Shown: positions 4,613-24,556 of the stretch, one piece after another
Layout: each line of letters opens with the position of its first letter
Numbering within the stretch: the first letter of the stretch is position 1
UHGV virus genome: UHGV-1374627
Strand: one strand, 5' to 3'
From: a virus
DNA length: 37,279 nucleotides
Notes under the pieces: generated by a model
Seen by the model: only the letters and a program-made list of their open reading frames with translations
Databases searched by the model: none
What the model was told of the DNA's origin: nothing
Program-made: the position numbers and the translations under genes

Positions 4613-5725
4613 TTAGAGCTGTGTGGCGATATTTACGGCAGATTTCAGGTCGGTATGGGTGTAATGTGTGGTCATTTCCATCGAAGTGTGCCCGATCATG
4701 GCCATTTTGTCAGCGTCCGGCGCGTCAATTTTTTTCATGAGGGTTGCAAAAGTATGGCGGCAGGAGTGCGGCACCAGGCGGCGCACTCCTGCCTGCTCCA
4801 GCGCCGGATAATACCATTTCTCTCGGAATTTTTTCTGCTGCACCTTCTTCCCGTCCTCGGAAAAGATGAATCCTGGCTTTTCCCATTGCAGCACGTAGTC
4901 AATGATTTTAGGGCTGATGGCCACAATGCGGTGCATGCCGGCCTCCGTCTTTTCGCCGCCGACAAAATAATAGCTCTGGTTGATCTCATCATAATGGAGA
5001 TTTGTGTCCTGGAGCTGGAGCAGCTCCTCAAGCCGGAAACCGGTGTAACACAGGATGAGCACAAGCTCGATCCTTGGCACCGTGCCGACGGCTTTTTTCA
5101 TTTTTTCGAGTTCCTCATCGGTAAACGGTTCACGGCCAGCTTGCGTCTCGCCGCCCACACGGAGCAGCTCCGCATAATTCTTACTTACGACGTCGTCGCG
5201 CATTGCAAAGCGAAACAGCATCGTCCCCAGTGCCTTCATGTTCTCCTGCGTCCGGCGCCCCTTCGGACAGGCATCCAGGCAGGCCTGCAATGCTGCCGTC
5301 TTTAAATCGGCCATCTTCGCGAACCAGATCGGTTCATAGTATTTGTAGGCGGCTTTGTAGCAATTCATCGTGCTGGCCTTTACGTCCTTTTCGTGCTCGG
5401 CCTCCCATTTTTCATAGATCTGCCGGAATGTGATGTTTGCTGACAAGGCGGAAAGCTGGACGCGGAGCTGCGGGATATACTCCTGCGCTTCGCGCTTTGT
5501 TTTAAAGCCACTCTTCGTTCGCGTCCGGCGCAGAGGCTTCCCATCTGGCCCTGGAATATAGCCAATCGTAGCAACAGCGCGCCATGTGCCATTCGGCAGC
5601 TTGTAGACACTGCCGGTGCCATTCCCCCGTGCTTTTGGTCTTCGTTCTGGTCTCTCCTGCTTCGCGCCGCACTGGGCGCAGAATGGGCCGTCCGGAACGT
5701 CTTGTTTACATTTGCGGCAGATCAT
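4613..5725 (-). CDS. int: tyrosine recombinase (phage integrase) with N-terminal zinc ribbon and arm-binding domain
   Basis: The N-terminus is CRKC...CAQCG followed by RPKARGNGTGSVYKL (arm-type DNA-binding). The catalytic region contains HSCRHTFATLM and IGHTSMEMTTHYTHTD (R, HxxR and Y motifs). The gene is adjacent to the tRNA fragment, with a GGGGGTG RBS. Confidence 0.93.
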   Translation of the reverse strand: MICRKCKQDVPDGPFCAQCGAKQERPERRPKARGNGTGSVYKLPNGTWRAVATIGYIPGPDGKPLRRTRTKSGFKTKREAQEYIPQLRVQLSALSANITFRQIYEKWEAEHEKDVKASTMNCYKAAYKYYEPIWFAKMADLKTAALQACLDACPKGRRTQENMKALGTMLFRFAMRDDVVSKNYAELLRVGGETQAGREPFTDEELEKMKKAVGTVPRIELVLILCYTGFRLEELLQLQDTNLHYDEINQSYYFVGGEKTEAGMHRIVAISPKIIDYVLQWEKPGFIFSEDGKKVQQKKFREKWYYPALEQAGVRRLVPHSCRHTFATLMKKIDAPDADKMAMIGHTSMEMTTHYTHTDLKSAVNIATQL

Positions 5726-8914: not shown

Positions 8915-9718
8915 ATGTTTGTTTTGCAAGGGGGTGAATCGATTTTGAGCGAAGATTTTCGCGCCTTTTGGTCGGTCATCCCGGCCACGGTGCTGGATGA
9001 TATGTCCATCCCGGCCAATGCGAAGATCCTCTATGGGGTGCTGTCGTCGCTGATGCGGCGCGAGGGCTACTGCTGGCCCAGCAATGCGCAGCTCGCCGAG
9101 GCGATGCACTGCTCCGAGGACGTGGTCAAACGATGGGTGTCGGCGCTGGCCGAGGCCGGACACATCCGCGTCCGCATCGAGCCGAACCGCAAGGTCGGCG
9201 GCAAGATCCGCTACATCTCGCCAGTGCTGGCAGAGCCGTCCATCACGCCCTCGCAGGATGGGTACGGGGACGAATGTCCCGGTACGTACGGGGATAAAAA
9301 TCCCCGGGTAGGGGGACAAACTTCCCCGTCTATATATAAGGATGGATATAAAAAAGAGAATAAAAAGAAAAAGGAAAAAGAAAAACCGCAATCGGCTGAC
9401 GCCGTTGCGGCCTCCCTCCTGTATAAATGCGAGCAGAACGGTCAGCCGCTGGTGGATGCCATGCAGCGGTTTTTGCAGATGCGCGTTGAGATCAAAAAGC
9501 CGGTCAAGTCCATGCAGGCTGCTGCCATGCTTTGGAACAAGCTCGTCAAGCTGTCTGCCGGTGACCCGGACTACATGGTCGCCCTGCTGGATAAGGCGAC
9601 CGAGCGGCAATGGCTGAGTCTGTTCCCGCTGAAGGATGACGAGCTGCCGCAGAACCGGCAGGCTGTCCCTGCTGATAATGCCGGGCGCGTGGATCTCAGC
9701 GGCGTGGAGTTTGTGTGA
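8915..9718 (+). CDS. replisome organizer / replication initiator (winged-helix N-domain, DnaD-like C-domain)
   Basis: ANAKILYGVLSSLMRREGYCWPSNAQLAEAMHCSEDVVKRWVSALAEAGHI is the phage replisome-organizer N-terminal wHTH. The C-terminal LLYKCEQNGQPLVDAMQRFLQMR...MLWNKLVKLS is DnaD-like. The gene carries an internal Lys-rich low-complexity linker. The alternative start TTG 8945 has an AGGGGGTG RBS. Confidence 0.75.
   Translation: MFVLQGGESILSEDFRAFWSVIPATVLDDMSIPANAKILYGVLSSLMRREGYCWPSNAQLAEAMHCSEDVVKRWVSALAEAGHIRVRIEPNRKVGGKIRYISPVLAEPSITPSQDGYGDECPGTYGDKNPRVGGQTSPSIYKDGYKKENKKKKEKEKPQSADAVAASLLYKCEQNGQPLVDAMQRFLQMRVEIKKPVKSMQAAAMLWNKLVKLSAGDPDYMVALLDKATERQWLSLFPLKDDELPQNRQAVPADNAGRVDLSGVEFV
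9266..9390. repeat. origin-like segment inside initiator gene: three GGGGA...TCCCC inverted-repeat elements followed by a ~60-bp AT-rich tract
   Basis: GGGGAcgaatGTCCC, GGGGAtaaaaaTCCCC and GGGGGAcaaacTTCCCC lie at 9266-9328. A ~60-nt A/T-rich run (tatatataaggatggatataaaaaagagaataaaaagaaaaaggaaaaagaaaaa) follows at 9329-9388, within a 60% GC genome. Confidence 0.45.
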
Positions 9719-11085
9719 TGGCCAGCAAACAAGATGCGCTGATCAGCGCACAGACTTCCGTCCTCGGCTCGATGATCATCGATTCGCGCTGCGTCCCCGT
9801 CGTGATGGAGACGATCAAGGAGGACTATTTTACAGTCGGCCAGTATCGGACGATCTTCAATGCGATCCGTGCGCTGGCTGGCGAGGGACGTCCGATCGAC
9901 GCCGTGACGGTGCTCGACCGGGCTGGAAAAGCCTACACCGACCTGATCGGCCAGATCATCACGGTCACGCCGACCGCCGCCAATGTCCGCGAGTATTGCC
10001 GTATCCTGCGGAGCGAGGCCCGCTTGCAGCTGCTCAAGGATGCAGCCGGCGCAATGCTCGACGCGGAGGACGAAGACGAGATCCGCACGGCGCTGGATCA
10101 GGTCAACCGCATCATGGTCGACAAGCCTGGCATCCGGGCCATGAATATGGCGCAGGCGCTGGAAGATTTCTACCGGCGGCACGATCCATCCGTCAAGCCG
10201 GACTTCCTGCCGTGGAAGTTTGCCAAGCTCAACAAATACCTCCGGACGGAGCCGGGAGACCTCATCTACATCGGCGGCTATCCCTCGGACGGCAAGACCA
10301 CGCTTGCACTGCACACGGCCCGAGAGCAGGCAAAAACCAAAAAGGTCGGGTTCTTCAGCTATGAAACAAACTGTGGGAAGCTGGCAGACGCGATGGTCTG
10401 CGCTGCCGCGCAGATCGGCCTGCCAACCATCCAACTCAACAAACTCGGCGAAAACGAGTGGGACGAACTGGCCTACATTTCCACAGATTTCACGGGCCGT
10501 AATCTCGACATCATTGAGGCCGCCGGCATGACGGTCACGGACATCCGCCTCTACACGATGGCGCACCACTACGATGTGATCTACATCGACTATGTCCAGC
10601 TCATTCCGGCCAGCGGGAAAAGCCGCTGGGAACAGGAGGATTTCCAGCGGGTCAGCGCCAATAGCCGTGCGCTCAAGCTCTTTGGTCTCCAGTGTGGTGT
10701 GACGATCGTGGCACTCAGTCAGATGACGAGGCCGCAGCGCAACAAGGACGGCATGATCCCGCCGCCGACAATGTCTAGCCTCCGCAGCACCGGCCAGATT
10801 GAGCAGGATGCGGACGCCGTTCTGCTGATGTTCCGCGAGGATCAAAAGGCAAAGGACGCCGACCGCATCATCACCTTCGGCAAGATCAAGACCGGCGCGG
10901 CAGGCGGCTCTTTCAAACTCCACTTCGACGGCGAAATGCAGACGTTCAGCGACAAGCCGAACGAGCGCAAGCAGCGCCGCGAGGAAGTGCAGCAACAGAC
11001 GAAAATGCAGGAATTCCGGGAACTTCCAAAAAGCGAACCGCTCCCGGATGATTTCCCATTTGAACGAAAGGAAGAAAACACATGA
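9715..11085 (+). CDS. dnaB: replicative DNA helicase, DnaB family
   Basis: The N-terminal DnaB domain reads LISAQTSVLGSMIID...EDYF. The Walker A is GGYPSDGKTTLAL. RecA-like motifs follow (IYIDYVQL, SQMTRP). The 456-aa product overlaps the replisome organizer stop. Confidence 0.9.
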   Translation: MMASKQDALISAQTSVLGSMIIDSRCVPVVMETIKEDYFTVGQYRTIFNAIRALAGEGRPIDAVTVLDRAGKAYTDLIGQIITVTPTAANVREYCRILRSEARLQLLKDAAGAMLDAEDEDEIRTALDQVNRIMVDKPGIRAMNMAQALEDFYRRHDPSVKPDFLPWKFAKLNKYLRTEPGDLIYIGGYPSDGKTTLALHTAREQAKTKKVGFFSYETNCGKLADAMVCAAAQIGLPTIQLNKLGENEWDELAYISTDFTGRNLDIIEAAGMTVTDIRLYTMAHHYDVIYIDYVQLIPASGKSRWEQEDFQRVSANSRALKLFGLQCGVTIVALSQMTRPQRNKDGMIPPPTMSSLRSTGQIEQDADAVLLMFREDQKAKDADRIITFGKIKTGAAGGSFKLHFDGEMQTFSDKPNERKQRREEVQQQTKMQEFRELPKSEPLPDDFPFERKEENT

Positions 11086-11897
11086 AAGCAATCGCAATCC
11101 TGAATCTGAAAGGCGGCGTCGGAAAGACCGTCACTGCCGTCAACATGGCCCACATCCTGGCCGCCGATCACAAACAGCGTGTGCTCCTGGTTGACTGCGA
11201 CAGCCAGTGCAACGCGACGGAGTTCTTCGGTGTGCGGCCCGGAATGGGAACGGTCACGCTGGCCGACATTCTGCGCGGCGACTTCGAACCGTACGTCTCG
11301 GAGCTGGTCACGGGCACGGATTATCCCGGCGTCGACGTGATCCCCGGCTCTGATGAGCTGATGGACATGGATATGTCCCAAATCACGAGTCAGCGCGTCA
11401 ACGGCCGTGTCCTCGCGGATCTGTGCTGCACAATCGGTGAGGATGACGAGTACGACTACGTCCTGTTCGACTGCCCGCCGGCCTTTAATGCAGCGAGCGC
11501 CGCGGCGCTTTTGGCTGCGGATGAAGTTATCATCCCGATCAAGCTCGACGCCTTTTCCATCCGGGGGCTGGCCAATGTCAGCCGACAGATCGACAATATG
11601 CAGCGCATCAATCCCAAGATCCGCGTTGCCGGGGCGCTCATCACGATGTGGCGCAACGTGCCCGTCGTGCTGGAGGCCGAGGGCAGTCTCCGCGACTGCG
11701 GCCTGCTGCCGGTATTTCAGACGGTCATTCGCCGCACTGACAAGGTCGACGAGATGACCTTCGAACGCAAGCCCATCGCCATCTATTCCCCGCGCAGCGC
11801 CGCCGGCTATGATTACCGAAGCTTTGTGCAGGAGTATTTGGAGCCGCCCGTCACAATGGACGATATGCTGAGAGGAGGCGTTGACCGTGCCGTTTGA
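11082..11897 (+). CDS. parA: ParA/Soj-family partition ATPase
   Basis: The deviant Walker A reads IAILNLKGGVGKTVTAVNMAH. LLVDCDSQCNAT and DYVLFDCPPA are consistent with ParA. The start overlaps the dnaB stop in an ATGA junction. Confidence 0.9.
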   Translation: MKAIAILNLKGGVGKTVTAVNMAHILAADHKQRVLLVDCDSQCNATEFFGVRPGMGTVTLADILRGDFEPYVSELVTGTDYPGVDVIPGSDELMDMDMSQITSQRVNGRVLADLCCTIGEDDEYDYVLFDCPPAFNAASAAALLAADEVIIPIKLDAFSIRGLANVSRQIDNMQRINPKIRVAGALITMWRNVPVVLEAEGSLRDCGLLPVFQTVIRRTDKVDEMTFERKPIAIYSPRSAAGYDYRSFVQEYLEPPVTMDDMLRGGVDRAV

Positions 11898-12969
11898 TGT
11901 GAGCCGTATTTTGCAGGACGCCGCACCTGCACCGAAAGATATGACGCTGCCGGAAACAGGGCCGCGGACGGCAGAGACCATCGGAAGCGAGATCCGCTAT
12001 CTGTCCCATCAGGCCAAGTGCATGACGGTCTGGTTCGGTGTGGAGATCGGCAAGCGCCTTGCCGAGGCGAAGGCCATGGTCGGCCACGGCGGATGGCTGG
12101 ATTTCCTGAAAAACGAAACGGAGTTTTCGCAACCCGCCGCAAATCGATTCATGCGGATTGCGAGGGAATACGGCGAAAAAGCAAATTATTCAACGTTGAA
12201 TAATTTGAGCGTTTCCAATGCTTTGCGGCTTTTGGCCGTGCCAGAAGAGGAGCGCGAAGAGTTCGCCGAGGCGGTCGATGCGGAGAATCTTTCCGCCCGC
12301 GAGCTGGAACAGGCCATTCGGGAACGCGATGAGGCACGGAAGCAGCTGGAGGCCGAGCGCGCGGCCAGTGAGGGCACGGCGCTGAAGCTGGCCGACATCA
12401 CCTCCGCCCTCGATGCGGAGAAAGAAAAGACGGCAGCGCTCAGGGAGCGCACCGACGCGCAGGCAGCGAAGATCACGGAACTGGAAAACCGGCCGGTCGA
12501 GGTCGCCGTGCAGGCGGCAGACCCGGCGGAGATCGAAAAGGCCGTTGCGTATGCGCTGGCCGAGGCGGAGAAAAAGCACAAGGCCGACGTCGCTGCGCTG
12601 GAAAAGCGCCGCAGGGAGGCCGAGAAGAAGCAGGCGGAGCTTCAGGCCGAGGCTGCGAAGGCCATGGCCGATCTGAAAAACAGCACAGGCCGTGCCGATG
12701 AGCTGAAGCACCGCGTCGAGACGCTTCAGTCCGAGCTTGAGGCCGCAAAGGCAAACGCCGAGAAGCTTCAGAAGGCAGGGGCGATCCAGTCGGACGCGGA
12801 CATTGCCGTCTTTCAGAGCTTCTTTCAGGCGGTGCAGGAAAACTTCAATCGCGCCTGCGGCCTGATGCAGAAGATCAAGACTCGTGACGCGGAGAAGGCC
12901 GCGAAACTGGCCCGGTTCAGCCGGGACGCGCTGGCAAAGATGTCGGCGCTGGTCGAAAAGGAGGCATGA
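11881..12969 (+). CDS. ParB-like partner protein (DUF3102-like N-domain plus long Ala/Glu-rich coiled coil)
   Basis: IGSEIRYLSHQAKCMTVWFGVEIGKRLAEAKAMVGHGGWLDFL resembles DUF3102 (KorB/ParB-associated). The remaining ~250 aa are AEKKQAELQAEAAKA-type coiled coil. The gene follows parA with overlap. Confidence 0.6.
   Translation: MTVPFDVSRILQDAAPAPKDMTLPETGPRTAETIGSEIRYLSHQAKCMTVWFGVEIGKRLAEAKAMVGHGGWLDFLKNETEFSQPAANRFMRIAREYGEKANYSTLNNLSVSNALRLLAVPEEEREEFAEAVDAENLSARELEQAIRERDEARKQLEAERAASEGTALKLADITSALDAEKEKTAALRERTDAQAAKITELENRPVEVAVQAADPAEIEKAVAYALAEAEKKHKADVAALEKRRREAEKKQAELQAEAAKAMADLKNSTGRADELKHRVETLQSELEAAKANAEKLQKAGAIQSDADIAVFQSFFQAVQENFNRACGLMQKIKTRDAEKAAKLARFSRDALAKMSALVEKEA
12183..12206. 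repeat. perfect 24-bp palindrome AAATTATTCAACGTTGAATAATTT embedded in ParB-like gene (candidate parS/centromere site)
   Basis: Exact 12+12 inverted repeat. It is AT-rich in GC-rich surroundings. Confidence 0.6.
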
Positions 12970-13133
12970 TGGCAAAAAAGAAGCGGCGGACACTCCCGCC
13001 GCCATCTCATGGGACGGAATGTTATAACCTGCTGTGCCCGTATCGGCACAACAGCACGCAGTCAGCGTATAGCTGCGCGATAATTCGCCTCTGCGCGGCC
13101 CGAAAACTGGAAAGGAGTCCACGCCATGAATGA
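12969..13133 (+). CDS. small Cys-containing protein (54 aa), possible zinc ribbon
   Basis: Product MAKKKRRTLPPPSHGTECYNLLCPYRHNSTQSAYSCAIIRLCAARKLERSPRHE. The gene overlaps both neighbours and is not in the track. Confidence 0.3.
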   Translation: MAKKKRRTLPPPSHGTECYNLLCPYRHNSTQSAYSCAIIRLCAARKLERSPRHE

Positions 13134-13362
13134 GCCTTTGACTCTGCAAGAGCTTGTGGAGATGAACGGTCAGCAGGTTTGGGCTGGCGAGCCGTTTAAC
13201 GATTGGGTCAAACTCATAATCGGCCCCTATGGCATTCCAAGCAGTATGCCCCCTGTAAAATTGTACCGTGCCCAACCAGATACGTTCGTGGAAGCAGGAA
13301 AGGCTGACAATGAAGCGCATAACGAGCTGGAACGGCGACTGTGTGCGGATCAACGGGCATAG
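13126..13362 (+). CDS. hypothetical protein
   Basis: GGAAAGGAG RBS. The 78-aa ORF has no recognised domain. Confidence 0.45.
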   Translation: MNEPLTLQELVEMNGQQVWAGEPFNDWVKLIIGPYGIPSSMPPVKLYRAQPDTFVEAGKADNEAHNELERRLCADQRA

Positions 13363-13403
13363 CTTTTTCCACGATGAAAATTACATGAGGGTGGTAATCA
13401 CGG

Positions 13404-14030
13404 ATGAGTAAAGCAGTTTTAATCAGCATCCGTCCGAAATGGTGCGAGAAAATCGCGTCCGGAGAAAAGACCATCGAGGTTCGCAAGACGCGGCCGAAGA
13501 TGGAAACGCCGGGCAGGTGCTACATCTACTGCACGCAGAGCGCTGATATGCTTTGGATTTTGAAGGAAAGAGAACGGTCTCTCCATCCTGATAAAATAGC
13601 GGATGTTTTCAAGGCTGCTAAATGCGGCGGAGCATATCGGGGGAATGGCAAGGTCATCGGTGAATTTGTATGTGATCGAATCGACACGATCCTTCCTGAA
13701 AACGAACCATACGGCATTTACAACATCGACGACGATTATGTCTTTCAGACGTGCCTTGAATATGGTGCGCTTTGGAACTACGGAAACGGCCAAACGCTAT
13801 ACGGCTGGCACATTTCAAACCTGAATATCTACGATGAGCCGAAGGAGCTGGGAGAGTTCACGGCTGCTTGCAGGTATAAAAATGATGATGGGTCGTGCCC
13901 GTCACGTAGGATTGCGTGTTCGTTCCAGAGATATGATTACAACCCAGACGGAAGCATTAACATCGCGGAATGTGAAAATACAATTCGCCGTCCGCCCAAG
14001 AGCTGGGGATATGTGGAGGAATTGCCATGA
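13404..14030 (+). CDS. ASCH-domain protein (PUA-like fold)
   Basis: AVLISIRPKWCEKIASGEKTIEVRKTRP is the ASCH N-terminal signature. The 208-aa product has a Cys-containing C-terminal extension. Confidence 0.7.
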   Translation: MSKAVLISIRPKWCEKIASGEKTIEVRKTRPKMETPGRCYIYCTQSADMLWILKERERSLHPDKIADVFKAAKCGGAYRGNGKVIGEFVCDRIDTILPENEPYGIYNIDDDYVFQTCLEYGALWNYGNGQTLYGWHISNLNIYDEPKELGEFTAACRYKNDDGSCPSRRIACSFQRYDYNPDGSINIAECENTIRRPPKSWGYVEELP

Positions 14031-14230
14031 AGCCGCCGTGTGAGAGGGACTGTCCGGGGCGGTCAGCGGAATGTCACGCCAGGTGCGCGCCTTATCTGGA
14101 ATATGAGGAAGCAAAACAGGCGGAATATCGGGCGAATGTGGCTGAAAGAGACCGGAACGCTTACACTGCGGACGCGGAAAAGCGGTCACGGAGTGTAGCG
14201 AGATTGAAAAGAATGGGGCTGCTGAAATGA
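14027..14230 (+). CDS. Cys-rich small protein (CxxxC...CxxxC) with basic C-terminal helix
   Basis: Product begins MKPPCERDCPGRSAECHARCAPY. Its 3' end (ERDRNAYTADAEKRSRSVARLKRMGLLK) is duplicated downstream of the methyltransferase gene. Confidence 0.5.
   Translation: MKPPCERDCPGRSAECHARCAPYLEYEEAKQAEYRANVAERDRNAYTADAEKRSRSVARLKRMGLLK
14141..14230 (+). repeat. left copy of ~85-bp imperfect direct repeat flanking the methyltransferase gene
   Basis: gcttacactgcggacgcggaaaagcgg...ggggctgctgaaATGa aligns with 14992-15075 (gcctacactgcggacgcgaagaagcgg...ggggttgctgaaATGa) at ~75-80% identity. Confidence 0.7.
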
Positions 14231-14991
14231 CGCATCTGAGTTTGTTTTCGGGTATCGGCGGACTTGATCTTGCTGCGAAATGGGCAGGATTTACAACCGT
14301 TGGGCAATGCGAATTTGCAGATTACCCAACAAAAGTGCTGGAAAAGCACTGGCCGGATGTGCCGCGCTGGCGTGACATCCGGACTTTGACGAAGGAGAGT
14401 TTTTATGAGCGGACAGGCCTACGAACAGTTGACGTTATTTCCGGCGGATTCCCATGCCAGCCCTTCTCCGTGGCTGGAAAGCAAAAGGGCAAAGGGGATG
14501 ATCGATACCTCTGGCCGGAGATGCTCCGAGTTATCACCGAGCTGCGCCCGCGTTGCGTTGTCGGTGAAAACGTTTCTGGACTTGTTCGAATTGCGCTTGC
14601 GGGAATCCTTTCCGAACTGCAAGGCGTCGGCTACGAAGCAAGGGCTTACAGTTCTGCGGCTTGGGATGTCGGCGGACTGCACAAGGGAGAGAGAATCTTT
14701 ATCGTGGCCGCGGCCAACGACGGGCGCGCCGCTGTGCGGCGGAACACACAACTTCCGGCAGATGGTGGCACTGAGAGACGCGGGGGCCGTCACGGAGGAG
14801 GAGCGGAAAAACCTGACCTGTGGAAGCGGTGGGAAGTCGAACCCCGCCCTTATGGAGTGGCTCATGGGATTCCTAATCGGGTGGACAGACTTAAATGCCT
14901 CGGAAACGCGGTAGTGCCGCAGCAGGCATATCCGATTTTCAAGGCATTGGCGGAAGAATTGCAGAGGGAGAAAAGACGTGAGAGAAGTTGA
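14227..14991 (+). CDS. DNA (cytosine-5)-methyltransferase, compact form
   Basis: Motif I is LFSGIGG. Motif IV is GGFPCQPFSVAG. Motif VI is VVGENVSGL. Motif VIII is RIFIVAA. Motif X is LGNAVVP. The very short variable region implies a minimal target-recognition domain. Confidence 0.9.
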   Translation: MTHLSLFSGIGGLDLAAKWAGFTTVGQCEFADYPTKVLEKHWPDVPRWRDIRTLTKESFYERTGLRTVDVISGGFPCQPFSVAGKQKGKGDDRYLWPEMLRVITELRPRCVVGENVSGLVRIALAGILSELQGVGYEARAYSSAAWDVGGLHKGERIFIVAAANDGRAAVRRNTQLPADGGTERRGGRHGGGAEKPDLWKRWEVEPRPYGVAHGIPNRVDRLKCLGNAVVPQQAYPIFKALAEELQREKRRERS

Positions 14992-15075
14992 ACGGAGCCG
15001 CGACGCCTACACTGCGGACGCGAAGAAGCGGTGTAAGAGCGTGGAGAGACTACGGAAAGCGGGGTTGCTGAAATG
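14992..15075 (+). repeat. right copy of direct repeat; encodes an out-of-frame relic of the upstream gene's C-terminus
   Basis: It translates to ERSRDAYTADAKKRCKSVERLRKAGLLK*, compared with ERDRNAYTADAEKRSRSVARLKRMGLLK* in the left copy. A possible 32-codon GTG-initiated ORF spans 14978-15075. Both copies end in ctgaaATGa, where ATG starts the next gene. Confidence 0.65.
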
Positions 15076-15918
15076 AATCGGATTGCGCGGGTATTCCCAA
15101 GAAAGACGGCTGCATCGCCTACGGATACGCTAGCGTTCTTCGGTGCACCGACAATCGAGAATATCGCAGATTGTATCAAGGCTGAAGTTGAAGCGGTGCA
15201 CATCTCTACAACCTTCACATGGGACATTCCGCGTGCAGAAGATCTCTACTATGCGTGGCAAATCCTCGGTGTTCCGGTTGAAGTTGGAGGCCCGGCATTT
15301 GATGACCGCATGGGTGATTTCACGCCGGGAATGTATCTCCGAGACGGCTATATCTTCACGTCGCGCGGCTGTACGAAGGAATGTTGGTTCTGCTCGGTTC
15401 CGCGCTGCGCACATGGCGTGATTCGGGAGCTGCCGATCGTGGATGGCTGGAATATCCTCGACGACAACATTCTCGGAACGTCAGAGCAGCACTTTCGGGC
15501 GGTATGCGAAATGCTCAAGCGGCAGGAGCATTTTGCAATCTTCACCGGAGGACTGGAACCGTCTTTGCTTCAGCAATGGCAGGCGGATTTGTTGCAGGAG
15601 GTAAAACCGAAGCGGCTTTACACAGCATACGACACAAAGGATGATCTGGAACCTCTGATTGAGATGGGGCGGAAACTACGCCTTGCGGGGTTCCGGCCAA
15701 AGAGTCACGCCATGTGCTGCTATGTCCTTGTTGGATATGCTGGGGACAGTTTTGAGGACGCGGAGTTGCGGCTGACACAGACCATGCAGGCCGGATTTGT
15801 ACCATACGCAATGCTTTTCCGGGATGAAGAAGGAAAAACGGACGCCGCGTGGCGAAGGTTTCAACGTGAATGGTGCAGGCCGATTATCACGGGGAAGAAA
15901 TTCAATGAATATTGGTAG
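15073..15918 (+). CDS. radical SAM-like enzyme
   Basis: TSRGCTKECWFCSV is a CX3CX2C motif with an aromatic residue before the third Cys. AIFTGGLEPSLL is the GGEP-type SAM-binding motif about 70 aa later. The ~65-aa N-terminal extension has no recognised match. Confidence 0.6.
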   Translation: MNRIARVFPRKTAASPTDTLAFFGAPTIENIADCIKAEVEAVHISTTFTWDIPRAEDLYYAWQILGVPVEVGGPAFDDRMGDFTPGMYLRDGYIFTSRGCTKECWFCSVPRCAHGVIRELPIVDGWNILDDNILGTSEQHFRAVCEMLKRQEHFAIFTGGLEPSLLQQWQADLLQEVKPKRLYTAYDTKDDLEPLIEMGRKLRLAGFRPKSHAMCCYVLVGYAGDSFEDAELRLTQTMQAGFVPYAMLFRDEEGKTDAAWRRFQREWCRPIITGKKFNEYW

Positions 15919-15929
15919 GAGGATCTGTA

Positions 15930-16823
15930 ATGGACTTGGAACAGAGCGCGTTTGAGGCGCTGCGGTTCGCGTCGGCACAGAGCTTGAAGCTCTACAAGCA
16001 GCCGCTTGTTATTACCTACTCGGGCGGCAAGGACTCGGACGTGCTTTTGCATCTGGCTGGGAAATCTGGTATCCCGTATGAGGTGCTGCACTCACTGACT
16101 ACGGCGGACGCACCGGAAACCGTATGGCACGTACGGGAGACCTTCCGCCGATTGGAGCTGGCGAACGTAAAGTGCGTTATCGACGCGCACGTCCAGCCGG
16201 ACGGGAAGTGCGCTACCATGTGGAATTTAATACCGAAGAAAATGGTGCCGCCCACAAGGATCAAGAGGTACTGCTGCGCGGTACTCAAAGAGGGCGGCGG
16301 AAAAGGGCGATTTATTGCAACAGGCGTAAGGTGGGCCGAATCGTCGAGGCGGAAAAACAGCCGCGGTGCGATTGAGGTATCCACCAGAGACAAAAACAAG
16401 CGACTGATCCTGATGGACGACAACGACGAGAGCCGGATGCAATTTGAATCGTGCCAGCTCAAGGGCCAGCGGACGGTGAATCCGATTATTGGATGGGGCA
16501 ACAAGGAGGTGTGGGACTACGCGGAGACTGAGAAGATCTGCATGAATCCGCTCTATGGCTGCGGCCACACGCGGGTTGGATGTATCGGATGCCCGTTAGC
16601 TTCGAAACGTGCCAGAATAGAGGAATTTATAATCTGGCCGAAATACAAGCAAGCATATATCCGCGCGTTTGATCGGATGCTGGAGGAACGCCGCCGCCGC
16701 GGTAAGATGGAGGGCGGGATGCGATGGGGCGAGACCGGCTTGGATATATTCAACTGGTGGATGGAAAATGATGTGCTTCCGGGGCAGGAAGTATTAAAAG
16801 AATTTCGGGAGGATTTGATATGA
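15930..16823 (+). CDS. PP-loop ATP pyrophosphatase of the PAPS-reductase/DndC-like family with C-terminal Cys cluster
   Basis: VITYSGGKDSDVLLHLA is a PP-loop SGGKDS motif. NPIIGWGNKEVWDYAETEKICMNPLY matches the PAPS-reductase W..DVW.Y....NPLY pattern. YGCGHTRVGCIGCP is an Fe-S/zinc-like cluster. GTAGGAGGA RBS precedes ATG 15930. Confidence 0.8.
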   Translation: MDLEQSAFEALRFASAQSLKLYKQPLVITYSGGKDSDVLLHLAGKSGIPYEVLHSLTTADAPETVWHVRETFRRLELANVKCVIDAHVQPDGKCATMWNLIPKKMVPPTRIKRYCCAVLKEGGGKGRFIATGVRWAESSRRKNSRGAIEVSTRDKNKRLILMDDNDESRMQFESCQLKGQRTVNPIIGWGNKEVWDYAETEKICMNPLYGCGHTRVGCIGCPLASKRARIEEFIIWPKYKQAYIRAFDRMLEERRRRGKMEGGMRWGETGLDIFNWWMENDVLPGQEVLKEFREDLI

Positions 16824-17266
16824 ATTTGAAGTCGGAAGAACTGGTCAAGGCGCTGAGGTGCTGCGCAGAGGGCGAGTGCAAAGACTGCGCCATGCATGAG
16901 GATAAGCAGCGCTGCCAAGAGAATTTATTGGACAAAGCCGCTGAAGCCATCGAGCGCGACCAGAAGGAGATTGACGAGCTTCGGGAGAAGCAGCGGTGGA
17001 TTCCTGTAACAGAGCGGCTGCCGGAGGAACGAGAACTTGTAAACGTGGTGTGGGTGAACAGAGTGCCGGAACCGTATTACGAAAAAATAAAAGGAGTTCC
17101 GTTTTCAGGGACTGCGTGTTTCTTCGGGGGACGCTGGTATTGGGATTCACCCATAGTCCTCGACCTGTTGTCGGAATACGGGAAAGATGATCCTGATTTG
17201 GTGGATGATGCCGTGGACATCACCCACTGGATGCCGCTGCCGGAACCGCCGAAGGAGGTGGAGTGA
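16820..17266 (+). CDS. DUF551-like phage protein with N-terminal Cys motif
   Basis: WIPVTERLPEERELVNVVW ... HWMPLPEPP matches the DUF551 pattern. The N-terminus reads CCAEGECKDC. Confidence 0.55.
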   Translation: MNLKSEELVKALRCCAEGECKDCAMHEDKQRCQENLLDKAAEAIERDQKEIDELREKQRWIPVTERLPEERELVNVVWVNRVPEPYYEKIKGVPFSGTACFFGGRWYWDSPIVLDLLSEYGKDDPDLVDDAVDITHWMPLPEPPKEVE

Positions 17267-17409
17267 TGGAAAATCTGTTGCAAAACTTCGCCAGCGGGCT
17301 GTGGATCGTATTGGGCGTGTACTGTTTCTTCGGGCTAAGGAAGTGGAACAAGCGGTTCAGCAAACTGTATGACGAGTTGAAGGAGGAGGTGGAGCGATGG
17401 AACGACTGA
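17266..17409 (+). CDS. small membrane protein (47 aa)
   Basis: Product MENLLQNFASGLWIVLGVYCFFGLRKWNKRFSKLYDELKEEVERWND. It overlaps the stop and start of its neighbours. Confidence 0.35.
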   Translation: MENLLQNFASGLWIVLGVYCFFGLRKWNKRFSKLYDELKEEVERWND

Positions 17410-17843
17410 CTTATTTCAAAGACGGATACTGGCGGGTAAATTTCAGCGGAGTGCAGTACCAGGCAGATTTTGTTGACCGTCTCGCAGCCTATGAGGACAG
17501 CAGACTATCCCCGGAGGATGCGGCAAATCTGCACGCAATTTTGAGAATGGGCGACGGCATGACGCTGATGCGCTTGCGGGAGCTGGCCGTGGCAGATCAA
17601 GAGGGGCGCGTGATCGTCTTGCCGTGTAAGGTGGGCGCTAGAGTGTATATCCCGGACATTGAATCCAAAACCGTTGCGAATGTCAGAGTGCAAGGAATTT
17701 CAATTACACCAAAAAGCCGTGTTGTCTTACACTTTGGCGGGTATCCTGTTGAATCTGCATGGGGAGATAGATGCGGGATAGATTGGTTCCTCAACCAAGA
17801 GGGAGCTGAAAAGGCGCTGGCGGAAATGGAGGGAAAGGCATGA
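17397..17843 (+). CDS. hypothetical protein
   Basis: The 148-aa ORF is translationally coupled to its neighbours. It has no recognised domain. Confidence 0.5.
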   Translation: MERLTYFKDGYWRVNFSGVQYQADFVDRLAAYEDSRLSPEDAANLHAILRMGDGMTLMRLRELAVADQEGRVIVLPCKVGARVYIPDIESKTVANVRVQGISITPKSRVVLHFGGYPVESAWGDRCGIDWFLNQEGAEKALAEMEGKA

Positions 17844-18169
17844 GCTTCGGCAAGAAAACGCGGGAATCGGTCTATGCGAAGTATGACGGCCACTGTGCCT
17901 ACTGCGGACGGGCTATCGACATCAAGGATATGCAGGTCGATCACTTTCTACCACTCAGAGCATGGGGTATTGAAGATGACGGAACGGATGATATTTCAAA
18001 CCTCATGCCATCCTGCCGGATGTGCAACCACTACAAGCGGGCAAATTCTCTGGAAACATTCCGGCGGTATATTGCAGAGATTCCGCGCAAGCTCCGCGAG
18101 AACTACATCTACAAGGTGGGCGTGGTTTACGGGAATGTAGTTGAAAACGAAAAGCCGATCAAGTTCTAA
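17840..18169 (+). CDS. HNH endonuclease
   Basis: CAYCGRAIDIKDMQVDHFLPLRAWG...NLMPSCRMCNHYKR has the CxxC...DH...N...CxxCN layout. Confidence 0.8.
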   Translation: MSFGKKTRESVYAKYDGHCAYCGRAIDIKDMQVDHFLPLRAWGIEDDGTDDISNLMPSCRMCNHYKRANSLETFRRYIAEIPRKLRENYIYKVGVVYGNVVENEKPIKF

Positions 18170-21050: not shown

Positions 21051-23378
21051 ATGACCGAGGCGCGCGGGTGCGCGCGAGAATTGAATCATGCGGTGCGGGC
21101 GCAAACGACGCGCCTGCGCGAAACGCCGGAGGCTGTGCCAGGCAGCAGCGACATTGGGAACGCCGCCATTGCCTTCTCAGATCCTCCTAACTGGGCCCGG
21201 AGCCGCCGGGCCTGGCAGAGTCTCCGGCATGCGGGAGGTGAGCACTTGGCCAGAGAGGACATGATCCGGAAGGACATGGAGCTGGTCGGAACCTACAACG
21301 AGATATTCGAACCGACGATCAAGCAGCTGGCCAAGGCGGAACGCGAACTCTCCCGCGCAGAGAAAGAGTGGAAAAAGCAGGGTGGGCAGCGGATCTGCAC
21401 CATGGTCAACAAGACCGGTGCAGAGTACACCGCCAAGAGTCCGTACTGGGCGGCGGTCGAAGATCTGCGCGCGACGGTGCAGTCTCTCCGCAATCAGCTC
21501 GGCCTGACGCCGACCGGCCTGAACAAGGCCAGGTCGAAGCTCCAGCCGACCGCGACCGGGAACAGCAAGATTGAGCAGCTGCTCGCGGCGGCACACGACC
21601 ACGCCGTAGAGCAGGGCGCGCAGTATCAGCGCGACGTCGACGCCTTTGTCGAGTCGGTGCTCTCCGGAGAGTCCGGGCTGTGCGAAGACGTTGTCCTATC
21701 CTGCAAACGGTATGTCGCGGATCTCGGCTCCGGCAAGTGGGATTTCCGAGCAGAGCCGGCCAACGATATCCTCGCGATCATCGAGACGATGTTCTGCCAC
21801 CAGCAGGGTGAATTCCTCGATGCGACGCCGCTGCGCGGCACGCCATTTCTTCTGCTCCCGTACCACAAGTTTATTGTCTACAACCTGATGGGTTTTTATC
21901 TGCCGGATACAAAGATCCGGCGCTTCAAGGAAGCTGTGGACTTTATCCCCCGCAAAAACGTCAAGACTACCTTCGCGGCCTCTCTGGCCGGAGCGCTAGC
22001 CATGTATGAGCGTGCCTCCGGCTCTAAAGTCTATGAGGTTGGCGGCGCTTTGAAACAGGCGCTCGAAGGTTTTGACTTCCTCAAATACAACTTCAACCGC
22101 CTCGGCGTAACAGTCCGGGACGATCCAAACCAGGGGCTGCGTATCATCGACAACAACATGGAGCGGTCCATTTCCGGTGACATTGGTGACGGCATGATCT
22201 CGATCAACGCCCTTGCCGCGAACCCTGACAAACAGGACTCCTTTAACTGCAACATCGTCATCGCTGACGAGGCCCACACCTACAAAAGCCCGCAGCAATA
22301 TCAGATTCTGAAGGACGCAACCAAGGCGTACACCAACAAATTGGTCATCATCATCTCATCCAACGGCCCCAATGCCCGCGGCTTTTTGCTCGGCCACTTG
22401 GACTATTGCCGGAAGATCCTGCGCGGGACCGTCACCGGCAACGCGGCAGACAGCATCTTCTGCTTCCTCTGCTCCGCGCCGACACTGGAAAACGGCGACG
22501 TTGACCTGCATGATCCGGCTGTGCTGAAAGCAGCCTCGCCGGGCTGGGGCTACTCCATCCGCCCGCAGGACATGATCAACGACGCGGCTATGGCCGCTGA
22601 AAACCCGGCGCTCCGGCCGGAGTTCCTCAATAAATCGCTGAACGTCACAACGAACGCGATCAAGGCATGGTTTGACATCCAAGAGTTCCGCAAGAGCGAC
22701 GAGAAGTACGACTGGAACTATCGGCAACTCGCGAAGCTGCCTATCCGTTGGTATGGCGGCACAGACCTTTCGAAGCTGCACGACCTTACGGCCGGCTGCC
22801 TCTTCGGCCACTACAAAGGCGTGGACATTATCATTTCGCACGCATGGTTCCCGCGGCCGGCCGCCATCGTCAAGGCACAGCAGGATCAAATCCCGCTGTT
22901 CGGCTGGCAGGAGGACGGCTGGCTGGACATGACAAACGACAAGGTCACAAATCACCACGATGTGGTGCAATGGTACAAAAAACTGCGCGCCGATGGGTTT
23001 AAGATCCGCCGCATCGGACACGACCGAAAATTCTGCCGCGAATACTTCGTCGAGATGCAGAAGGAACGCTTCCCCATCAAGGATCAGCCGCAGCTGTTCA
23101 CACGGAAATCCGAAGGTTTCCGCTACCTGGAGGCCAGCGCCAAGAAAGGAACGCTCTACTACATGCACGCCGAACCCTATGAGTACTGCGTACAGAACGT
23201 TGCCGGCATTGAGAAGGCAGACGACATGGTCATGTATCAAAAAATCGAGCCAAACCTCCGCATCGACCTCTTTGATGCCTCGGTGTTTGCGGTTTGCGCT
23301 TATCTCGAAGATCTGACCGCCAGCAATAAGGCGGCAGGCTGGTATGACAAGAAAGACAAGGACGGTGATGCAGATTGA
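21051..23378 (+). CDS. terminase: P27-family small-subunit-like N-terminal region fused in frame to Terminase_1-type large subunit
   Basis: Residues ~70-165 (ELVGTYNEIFEPTIKQLAKAE...NKTGAEYTAKSPYW...LRNQLGLTPTGLNKARSKL) match the P27 TerS C-terminal pattern, including GLTPxxRxKL. This runs without a stop into TerL motifs: QYQRDVDAFVESVLSGE, GTPFLLLPYHKFIVYNLMGF, a Walker-A-like PRKNVKTT and the Walker B NIVIADEAH. The nuclease half has D-rich motifs. No in-frame start codon is present near the TerL N-terminus. Confidence 0.85.
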   Translation: MTEARGCARELNHAVRAQTTRLRETPEAVPGSSDIGNAAIAFSDPPNWARSRRAWQSLRHAGGEHLAREDMIRKDMELVGTYNEIFEPTIKQLAKAERELSRAEKEWKKQGGQRICTMVNKTGAEYTAKSPYWAAVEDLRATVQSLRNQLGLTPTGLNKARSKLQPTATGNSKIEQLLAAAHDHAVEQGAQYQRDVDAFVESVLSGESGLCEDVVLSCKRYVADLGSGKWDFRAEPANDILAIIETMFCHQQGEFLDATPLRGTPFLLLPYHKFIVYNLMGFYLPDTKIRRFKEAVDFIPRKNVKTTFAASLAGALAMYERASGSKVYEVGGALKQALEGFDFLKYNFNRLGVTVRDDPNQGLRIIDNNMERSISGDIGDGMISINALAANPDKQDSFNCNIVIADEAHTYKSPQQYQILKDATKAYTNKLVIIISSNGPNARGFLLGHLDYCRKILRGTVTGNAADSIFCFLCSAPTLENGDVDLHDPAVLKAASPGWGYSIRPQDMINDAAMAAENPALRPEFLNKSLNVTTNAIKAWFDIQEFRKSDEKYDWNYRQLAKLPIRWYGGTDLSKLHDLTAGCLFGHYKGVDIIISHAWFPRPAAIVKAQQDQIPLFGWQEDGWLDMTNDKVTNHHDVVQWYKKLRADGFKIRRIGHDRKFCREYFVEMQKERFPIKDQPQLFTRKSEGFRYLEASAKKGTLYYMHAEPYEYCVQNVAGIEKADDMVMYQKIEPNLRIDLFDASVFAVCAYLEDLTASNKAAGWYDKKDKDGDAD

Positions 23379-24556
23379 GAGTGAAGCCGCAGCGCAGAGG
23401 GATGGACCCAGCGCTGCAAAAATGGATGATCGGCGCGATCGACGCTGATACGTTGGCCGTTCCCGGCTACACGCGCCTGATCGACAGCCCGGATGTGCTC
23501 GCCGCCATCGGCGGCCTCGCTGATATCATCTCGAACGCTACGATCCAGCTCATGCGGAACACCGATGACGGCGACGTCCGCGTTCGCAATCAGCTGGCGC
23601 GCTTCATGGACATTTCCCCGTGGCGGCACGGGACGCGCAAGGATCTGATCTCCTGGATCGTCTGGACGATGCTGACGACCTCGACCGGAAGTGCCTTCCT
23701 CCTGCCGCACACGGAGCGTGGCCTCCTGAGCGAGCTGGAGCCGATGCCAGGCGCGTATGCGCTGAGCGACGATAACGGCCTGACCTACTATGTCATGTGG
23801 CAGGGACGGCGATATGCGGCCGACAGCGTACTCCATTTCAAACGCTGGCCCGACCCGGCACAGCCCTGGCAGGGAATCGGCCTGCGGATCAGTCTCCGGG
23901 ATGTGACCGCGAATCTCCGGCAGGCGGCCGCCACGAAAAAGGGCTTTATGTCCGACAAGTGGAAGCCGAGCGTGATCGTCAAGGTGGATGCGCTGGCCGA
24001 TGAATTTGCCGATGAGGCGGGACGCAAGCGGCTGGTCGATCAGTATATGTCCGGTAGCTCCGCGGGCGAGCCGTGGGTGATCCCGGCAGAGCTGATGGAG
24101 GTGCAGCAGGTCAAGCCCCTGAGCTTGACGGATCTCGCCATCAAGGACAGCGTGGAACTGGACAAACGCGAGGTTGCTTCGCTGGTCGGTGTGACGCCGT
24201 ACATGGTCGGCGTCGGCAGTTATTCCGATGCGGAGCACAACCACATGATCCGCACCACAGCAGTCACGATCTCCAACATCATCTGCCAGGAGCTGACGCG
24301 AAAACTGCTGATCTCCGAGGAGATGTATTTCCAGATGTCCACACGCCGGCTTTATAGCTACACGCTGCAGGAGCTGGCCAGCGTGGCCGACGATCAGTAC
24401 ATCCGCGGCCTGATGGACGGAAACGAGGCCCGCGATTGGCTCGGCCTCAGCCCGCGCAAGGGCCTGAACGAGCTGGTCATCCTCGAAAACTACATCCCTC
24501 GCGGTATGATCGGCAATCAGAAAAAACTAGAAGGAGGCGACGGCAATGCCGAATGA
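23375..24556 (+). CDS. portal protein (HK97-family-like)
   Basis: The ~390-aa product is coupled to the terminase stop and precedes the prohead protease. The overall pattern is portal-like. The start is probably ATG 23402. Confidence 0.8.
   Translation: MRVKPQRRGMDPALQKWMIGAIDADTLAVPGYTRLIDSPDVLAAIGGLADIISNATIQLMRNTDDGDVRVRNQLARFMDISPWRHGTRKDLISWIVWTMLTTSTGSAFLLPHTERGLLSELEPMPGAYALSDDNGLTYYVMWQGRRYAADSVLHFKRWPDPAQPWQGIGLRISLRDVTANLRQAAATKKGFMSDKWKPSVIVKVDALADEFADEAGRKRLVDQYMSGSSAGEPWVIPAELMEVQQVKPLSLTDLAIKDSVELDKREVASLVGVTPYMVGVGSYSDAEHNHMIRTTAVTISNIICQELTRKLLISEEMYFQMSTRRLYSYTLQELASVADDQYIRGLMDGNEARDWLGLSPRKGLNELVILENYIPRGMIGNQKKLEGGDGNAE

Follow-up and report, generated by a model that had tools for sequence, protein, structure and literature searches.

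The DNA considered here is the 37,279-nucleotide sequence of virus genome UHGV-1374627 (hereafter the window), which by its recognised genes represents most of one temperate tailed-phage genome, and the feature under study is a C5 DNA cytosine methyltransferase (MTase) gene that lies between two direct repeats of the 3' end of the small gene preceding it. The surrounding genes are all on the + strand and are chained by overlapping stop and start codons. At the left border of what proves to be a variable island stands an ASCH-domain gene (13404..14030, +; PF04266, E 2.6e-5; phrog_3136), whose stop overlaps the start of gene A in the sequence ATGA. Gene A (14027..14230, +) encodes a protein of 67 aa with four cysteines and is followed by frame A of the MTase (14227..14991, +; PF00145, E 1.5e-35; phrog_363, E 1e-76), within which a nested open reading frame (ORF) of 169 codons occupies the +1 frame (14405..14914, +; phrog_1008, E 4e-12). 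The end of the MTase passes through a joint (14959..14977, +) into a relic of gene A comprising codons about 36-67, readable as a 32-codon ORF with a GTG start (14978..15076, +). Beyond this lie a radical-SAM-like (rSAM) gene (15073..15918, +; phrog_9298, E 8e-18; a weak PF04055 match; CxxxCxxC at residues 100-107), a PAPS-reductase-like (PP-loop) gene (15930..16823, +; PF01507, E 2.9e-20) with its own AGGAGG upstream, and a DUF551 gene (16820..17266, +; PF04448, E 2.4e-8) that forms the right border of the island.

A preliminary description of this locus had reported direct repeats of 75-80% identity either side of the MTase. The repeat is confirmed, at a slightly lower identity of 71-76%: copy 1 (14141-14230, +), the 3' end of intact gene A in the allelic form a1b1, and copy 2 (14987-15076, +), the end of the relic in the form a2b2, align without gaps at an offset of 846 nt, with 64/90 nt identical (71%) and 76% identity over the best 76 nt. 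Such an alignment is far better than random, as had been anticipated, with a z of about 9.8 against a background mean of 22.7 (sd 4.2) and a runner-up of 41/90 among all 90-nt matches in the whole window on both strands; its local alignment score of 61 compares with a maximum of 32 in 2000 shuffles of copy 2. Copy 1 can be divided into an a segment (14141-14161), an invariant 15-nt core TACACTGCGGACGCG (14162-14176, with its equivalent at 15008-15022 in copy 2), a b segment (14177-14218) and the junction CTGCTGAAATGA. The longest run common to both copies is 15 nt. Both end in CTGAAATGA, the ATG of which starts either the MTase (14227) or the rSAM gene (15073), and their similarity ceases exactly there, with 5/20 positions identical downstream. 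Read in the frame of A, copy 2 gives VERSRDAYTADAKKRCKSVERLRKAGLLK and a stop where copy 1 gives AERDRNAYTADAEKRSRSVARLKRMGLLK and a stop, with 20/30 residues identical, bearing out the earlier observation that copy 2 encodes, in another frame than the MTase, a recognisable version of the last residues of A. The truncated copy has the same orientation as the intact neighbouring gene and is homologous to the same part of it, the pattern by which gene-fragment scars are identified.

Relatives of the locus were gathered by searching viral contigs with the A and rSAM proteins, yielding 136 loci (labelled L001 onwards), on which tblastn and blastn comparisons were run. The full-length A genes of L003, L004 and L005 have a tail that matches copy 1 at 100% identity, those of L021, L022, L025, L029, L030 and L032 have tails matching copy 2 at 97-99%, and the relic itself is 100% identical to that of L001/L002. 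Because each copy is nearly identical to the tail of a different full-length A, these matches identify the two copies as alternative alleles of a single gene end, both present in the phage population, that have been united in one genome, rather than as duplicates that arose in place. The bracketing of a single gene by direct repeats would also be produced by local tandem duplication of the 3' end of A during insertion of the MTase (a long target duplication), with later divergence in place to about 71-76%, and the preliminary description had indeed taken the copies to have diverged after duplication. That account has to be given up, and we regard local duplication as highly improbable: as well as being 97-100% identical to different full-length A alleles elsewhere, the copies are not a fixed pair, since L001 and L051 carry the same relic beside a different copy-1 allele; the differences between them are spread evenly over the three codon positions (9/8/9), as between functional alleles; and there is neither a transposase among the island genes nor a short exact target duplication, the repeat being 90 nt long at 71% identity.

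Both arrangements from which the window could have been composed occur among the relatives. Most contigs with an A gene of the copy-2 type have it immediately ahead of the same rSAM gene, with the same ATGA overlap (L021, L022, L029, L030, L032); overall, the A/rSAM order with ATGA overlap is present in at least 15 viral contigs and in L143, a contig binned with a Clostridiales metagenome-assembled genome (MAG), and these provide the empty site lacking the MTase that had been predicted. The A-MTase arrangement is found as A/MTase/DUF551 in L037 and as A/MTase/PAPS in L006, L007, L011 and L034. By gene order and allele type, the window is an A-MTase arrangement continued into a truncated A tail that comes from an A-rSAM arrangement, an order (A-MTase-relic-rSAM) observed only in the window, L001 and L002, the last recovered again as L162. 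Repeated tails can mislead metagenome assemblers, so an assembly chimera must be considered; the copies are just 71-76% identical, however, their longest common run is 15 nt, and the identical arrangement is present in independent assemblies from different samples (L001; L002 = L162), so that an artefact of this kind is almost inconceivable.

Copy 2 is thus interpreted as the likely scar of out-of-register recombination between related phages that carried different cassettes after A. Whilst the allelic origin of the copies and the parental arrangements can be read directly from the relatives, the exact order of events is one that we infer. Two parents, one with A-MTase-DUF551 and the other with A-rSAM, would have been co-resident, and a crossover at a microhomology of a few bases would have joined the end of the MTase, just past the old ribosome-binding site of DUF551, to the middle of the other parent's A. 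The product would retain an intact A and both cassettes, with the other parent's A tail ahead of rSAM, and recombinants with an intact A and intact downstream expression signals would be those that survive selection. A relic ORF formed in this way would inherit a good ribosome-binding site and a GTG, and would end on the rSAM start codon. The two tails now present in one genome would then offer homology for further exchange, through which crossovers could delete or add the enclosed cassette or move the MTase and its tail in front of other genes, outcomes that are seen in relatives.

Two native contexts for the 3' end of the MTase exist among the relatives, namely MTase/DUF551 (L037, L055), which continues to GAATTGCAGAGGGAGGATTTGTTATGA, and MTase/PAPS (L006, L011, L034). 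The window matches the MTase/DUF551 context through CAGAGGGAG (14970) and then reads AAAAGAC GTG AGA GAA GTT GAA CGG, being A sequence from about codon 36 from the GTG onward. The GGGAG at 14966-14970, which in the parental arrangement is the ribosome-binding site of DUF551, now lies ahead of the relic GTG. The MTase side stops at CAGAGGGAG and the A side starts at about GTGAGAGAA, the 7 nt between them matching another type of scar: AAAAGAC (14971-14977) has no counterpart in any sampled full-length A and corresponds to the 5' edge of another A-tail scar, and AAAAGnnGnGAGAGAA is confined to MTase/tail and DUF551-fragment/tail scars. This second type is an 80-codon ORF between rSAM and PAPS (L003:4998-5240, also in L001, L002, L004 and L060), made up of the first codons of a DUF551-type gene (NLKPKELIREAMRANP, with ATG changed to ATA) and, fused to them, a diverged A tail; at its 5' edge (AAAAGCAGCGAGAGAA) it agrees with the MTase/relic joint of the window. 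Because AAAAGAC matches another scar, the scar in the window may be second-generation, its primary joint having been overwritten. The final residues of the MTase, REKRRERS and the stop (14989-14991), are read from the joint and the relic. Its frame enters the relic and ends at an out-of-frame TGA inside it, so that the C-terminus differs between contexts (REKRRERS, REDLL or GGSNGFGTERV).

Further recombination between tails is documented in the relatives. An identical MTase/tail joint stands before rSAM (window, L001, L002), before PAPS (L005, whose MTase has a different central region) and before a second PAPS type, PAPS2 (L051, L161, L163). The original reading of the locus as the footprint of recombination at a gene junction is upheld, but not the idea of a one-off cassette insertion, as the same joint precedes three different genes, the tails have themselves recombined and comparable scars are frequent in the island. 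L051 is equivalent to L001 minus 1033 bp, with A and MTase 99.8% identical and the downstream 1.5 kb 99.9% identical, and its single tail is chimeric, composed of the left end of relic 1 and the right part of relic 2 of L001. L161/L163 have the same outcome with the crossover point further right. By this comparison, the rSAM cassette was lost or gained twice independently through crossovers from tail to tail (L051; L161/L163). Shuffling is equally visible in intact genes: around the invariant 15-nt core, the a and b segments of full-length A tails combine as a2b2 (19), a2b1 (14), a1b1 (6), a2b3 (5), a1b2 (2) and a1b3 (1), such that all four combinations of a1/a2 with b1/b2 are found, and every b type occurs ahead of several different downstream genes. 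In the window, A differs from that of its closest relatives (L051, in which the upstream 2 kb are 100% identical) chiefly in a patch of 26 nt (14136-14161) that runs up to the core and represents a short allele patch relative to L051/L001.

That the same roughly 90-nt element flanks different cassettes, each starting at ATGA, could be taken to mean that a site-specific cassette system recognises the A tail, as an integron does attC or a homing endonuclease its target; phages have been reported to contain integron-like elements (PMC9892861), and an HNH gene is present in the window at 17840-18169. Site-specific recombination is disfavoured because the breakpoints vary: the left edges of A-tail fragments differ from scar to scar (about codons 19, 22, 27, 36, 40 and 45), and the crossovers in relatives fall at different points of the tail. 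Neither tail, folded as RNA alone or together with its flanks, showed significant structure (z -0.65 to -2.0). The sole integrase in the window, a phage-type enzyme with an arm-binding domain (4613-5725, -), is of the typical phage kind and 9 kb from the repeats, and the HNH gene adjoins the terminase rather than a cassette. A dedicated site-specific system is, on balance, very improbable.

The repeat described here is, by comparison across the relatives, one of many similar gene-fragment scars in the island, a hypervariable stretch of DNA-modification cassettes. About 123 distinct contigs contain more than 90 gene orders between ASCH and DUF551, assembled from cassettes that include the C5 MTase, a second small C5-like MTase ('U'), an N6/N4 MTase ('N'), rSAM and PAPS-reductase-like genes, and each cassette (the three different MTases, rSAM, PAPS-reductase-like and DUF551) is found directly after A in this phage group. 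The rSAM gene has 122 relatives in viral contigs, where it forms a cassette directly 3' of intact A, and the PAPS-reductase-like gene directly follows A in many relatives. Partial genes lie at the joints: A (5' and 3'), PAPS, DUF551, MTase and N-MTase. A codons 1-28 are duplicated upstream of N in L005, L006, L007, L014 and L040, with the joint at a GAGGAA shared with the 3' end of ASCH. A mirror image of the window is to be seen in L006:3235-4204 and L014:3235-4204, where the N6/N4 MTase (DPPY motif, 224 aa) sits between the A 5' repeat (codons 1-28) and full A. In L055-L057, A tails are fused to the first codons of rSAM, and in L054 an A tail is fused to a C-terminal fragment of the MTase, a 1-nt deletion bringing the fusion into frame. 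Residues 218-297 of PAPS are repeated about 40 nt after an intact PAPS-reductase-like gene in L010, L029, L032 and L035, many contigs have short stretches of the DUF551 5' end ahead of the next gene, and the ORFs called in metagenomes include chimeras in which only the 5' or only the 3' part of A is fused to other sequence.

Gene A itself belongs to a small family. There are 313 close homologues and, among 1.8 billion cluster representatives, 174 members, all of 51-119 aa. Its four invariant cysteines (C5, C9, C16, C20) all lie in the first 20 residues, and an AlphaFold2 model (predicted local distance difference test score of 91) places a Cys knuckle before two helices (21-45 and 48-62) that form a helical hairpin. 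No function could be assigned, with no match in Pfam, PHROG, NCBIfam or PDB sequences, nor among PDB folds when the confident model was searched with Foldseek. The final 16 nt of A are nearly constant in every tail, GGGGyTGCTGAAATGA, and comprise the A stop, the next start codon and a G-run 8 nt before that start. This layout suggests that the 3' end of A probably doubles as the translation-initiation region of whichever gene follows, which would explain why the tail is retained in scars. The most invariant nucleotide stretch of the gene lies elsewhere, at codons 27-36 (14105-14134), where third-position diversity across 33 distinct alleles is 0.075, compared with 0.16-0.31 elsewhere; the 15-nt core had been considered as a uniquely conserved element and was rejected as such, codons 27-36 being more invariant at third positions. 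Many scar breakpoints (codons 19-45) fall around codons 27-36.

The relic ORF noted in the preliminary description does exist, with its 32 codons, its GTG at 14978 and its GGGAG at 14966-14970 across a 7-nt spacer, and its stop overlaps the rSAM start. Could it be a working small gene, a shortened paralogue of A that is retained for the peptide it encodes? The good ribosome-binding site, the open frame and the stop overlapping the next start might be read in this way, as might the facts that the tail is open in all scars seen and that the 1-nt deletion in L054 fuses it in frame with the upstream fragment. The relic peptide corresponds to the end of helix 1 and helix 2, however, and because it lacks the Cys4 knuckle and half of helix 1, the structural model makes it unlikely to function as a protein. 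Its N-terminal context is different in every scar, its near-identity to functional alleles means that openness needs no selection, and it is absent from recorded called genes; a small gene retained for its product is accordingly an improbable explanation. From its position, the relic may instead be translated as a coupling leader for rSAM, for and against which we would put the chances at roughly equal.

It is worth noting several points that weigh against the recombination model as set out above. Firstly, the 5' edge of the relic fits another scar type rather than any sampled full-length A. Secondly, a recombinase, including one of the Rad52-like kind, was not recognised among the 20 window ORFs scanned. 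Thirdly, the order of events, whether MTase or rSAM was the gene added, is not polarisable, and since breakpoints are known from survivors only, a hotspot is indistinguishable from selection on the products. Finally, the role of the A tail in initiation or coupling is a prediction from sequence layout, and the relics, at no more than about 3% divergence from functional alleles, are too similar to them for selection, or the ratio of non-synonymous to synonymous change (dN/dS), to be measured.

A more ambitious proposal would treat the 3' end of A with its ATGA as a portable adapter, both an initiation/coupling module and a recombination handle through which anti-restriction modification cassettes are stacked, swapped and dropped, making it a protein-coding counterpart of PeSLs or attC sites with relics serving as coupling leaders. 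Such a role is speculative and, in our estimation, rather doubtful. PeSL cassettes in the hyperplastic regions of T4-type phages consist of intergenic promoter and terminator stem-loops (Arbiol et al. 2010, PMC2839356; Comeau et al. 2014, PMC4122927). The A tail resembles them as a short repeated element with expression signals (here predicted from layout) that flanks variable, non-essential genes, and recombination between copies deletes, inserts or swaps a gene (L001 vs L051; L161/L163); unlike them, it is the end of a protein-coding gene with overlapping stop and start, and possesses no promoter, terminator or stable fold. Similarly, the island is reminiscent of integrons, whose gene cassettes and attC sites have been reported in phages (PMC9892861), in that its single-gene cassettes, each accompanied by one copy of a repeated element, are arrayed together and can be exchanged, but there is no integron integrase, no attC-like folded palindrome, and breakpoints vary. 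The preliminary description had viewed the MTase as a moron. It is an accessory gene between genes that are adjacent in relatives, which is moron-like, yet it lies inside a run of genes joined by overlapping stops and starts and the strict sense of the term does not apply: no consensus sigma-70 promoters or intrinsic terminators, the only classes sought, flank 14227-14991, their counts in 12900-17400 are not above those in shuffles, and guanine-plus-cytosine (GC) content is 0.52-0.60 across the MTase vs 0.49-0.57 in the flanks, showing no shift in composition. With no promoter or terminator, no stable fold and no GC shift, neither the strict moron nor the PeSL-like and attC-like models describe the locus.

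The closest comparison is with the mosaic junctions of temperate phages, attributed to recombination between relatives, either illegitimate or of the relaxed homologous type (De Paepe et al. 2014, PMC3945230; mycobacteriophages, PMC3029335). Shared features are the exchange of modules, joints at or near gene boundaries, residual homology at the borders and recombination between diverged sequences (here about 76-80% identical). Differences from the usual junctions are that the out-of-register product, both parental arrangements and several secondary recombinants have all been sampled, and that one small gene supplies the border homology with its coding 3' end, which recurs before many cassettes. 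The event belongs to a known, ordinary class, and what is unusual is the detail of its documentation.

The MTase carried by this cassette has an unusual architecture of its own. Frame A matches PF00145 over residues 1-167, with motifs I-VIII and X visible, including I (FSGIGG), IV (FPCQPFS), VI (ENV), VIII and X (GNAVVP). The nested ORF at 14405-14914 is preceded by AAGGAG and a 7-nt spacer before its ATG, and carries sequence resembling a target recognition domain (TRD) and motif IX (SNPALMEWLMGFLIGWTDL). Nested +1 ORFs of 161-203 codons also occur in the C5 MTase genes of Paenibacillus phage Lily, Lactobacillus phage Lc-Nu, Bacillus phage yong1 and Lacticaseibacillus phages R9.1 and R23.9; such ORFs are homologous in six unrelated Firmicutes phages, that of Lily is annotated as 'g62 internal gene', and the translations from the named phages match phrog_1008 (E 1e-27 to 1e-41). 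When synonymous codons were shuffled with the frame-A protein held fixed, the probability of finding no +1 stop ranged from <0.0002 to 0.010, the signal coming from the stretch that overlaps motifs IV-VIII. Every MTase variant in the island has its nested frame open over 200-245 codons, and this frame contains (W)PTPxA repeats and GQLNPTWVEWLMGFPxGWTDL, and frame A is of low complexity where the nested frame has the (W)PTPxA repeats. The shuffling results indicate that the nested frame is kept free of stops by selection. A double ribosomal frameshift linking the two frames was considered and rejected: that the +1 frame is kept open over motifs IV-VIII and possesses a conserved start of its own speaks for a separate nested gene instead.

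A precedent for such an arrangement is M.EcoHK31I, a two-polypeptide C5 methyltransferase in which the beta chain, encoded in another frame inside the alpha gene, supplies motif IX (PMC2836561). As in that enzyme, frame A has motifs I-VIII plus X, and the nested ORF in the other frame has the motif-IX-like GFPxGWT. The nested ORF is therefore a candidate beta subunit, and the MTase is probably a two-polypeptide enzyme of the same kind. In contrast to M.EcoHK31I, in which the TRD is assigned to alpha, the TRD-like (W)PTPxA repeats here belong to the nested frame; the nested ORF is also longer, at 161-245 codons, and starts before motif IV. In L079:2263-3236, the N-terminal catalytic half of the MTase continues in frame into the nested-frame TRD (LWPTPRAN, continuing to LNPTWVEWLMGFPPGWTDLNASGTP and a stop), with motif X (GNAVVPQQAYPIFKAL) open downstream in the -1 frame, an arrangement that may represent alpha and beta naturally fused, a pseudogene or a site of frameshifting. 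More generally, many Firmicutes phages have an unannotated nested ORF in their small C5 methyltransferases.

Elsewhere in the window are an amidase (1796-2485), a DnaB-like helicase (9715-11085), a ParA-like ATPase (11082-11897), a DUF3102 gene (11881-12969), the terminase (21051-23378, +) that the HNH gene adjoins, a portal (23375-24556), a capsid gene (25131-26819, +) and tail genes. The host is probably a human-gut member of the Clostridia, of the family Oscillospiraceae, a hint that comes solely from relatives of rSAM, close ones of which are found on contigs binned with human-gut Oscillospiraceae and Clostridia MAGs; gene A gave zero matches against one genome per bacterial species, and annotated phage genomes held no close relative of the island, with short matches to the MTase only. 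Beyond the MTase, the rSAM-like protein (CxxxCxxC, with a weak B12-binding-like N-terminus) and the PP-loop PAPS-reductase-like protein that follows it (15073-16823), the latter faintly similar to DndC (E 7e-8), are encoded by neighbouring yet separable cassettes of the MTase island and may form a DNA-modification pair. The terminase is a single ORF of 775 aa in which a Terminase_4 small-terminase domain (residues 74-157) precedes the large-terminase ATPase and nuclease domains, and is either a TerS-TerL fusion or two genes merged by mechanical ORF calling. The C-terminus of the major capsid protein resembles the C-terminal (Ig-like) domain of S-layer protein SbsC (E 5e-5, a score slightly below the Pfam cut-off).

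Phage mosaicism is usually inferred from its end products. For this locus, public data contain the intact gene and its relic, the two parental arrangements and no fewer than two secondary recombinants, allowing a base-by-base reading of how a set of modification genes was assembled. The island could serve as a natural test bed for asking how much homology phage recombination needs, whether breakpoint clustering reflects mechanism or selection, and whether gene ends that hold the translation signals of the next gene are kept in preference to others. It also calls for caution in annotation, as short and 'fusion' ORFs in such islands are scars. For the phages themselves, the modification genes of the island probably set which restriction systems they evade.

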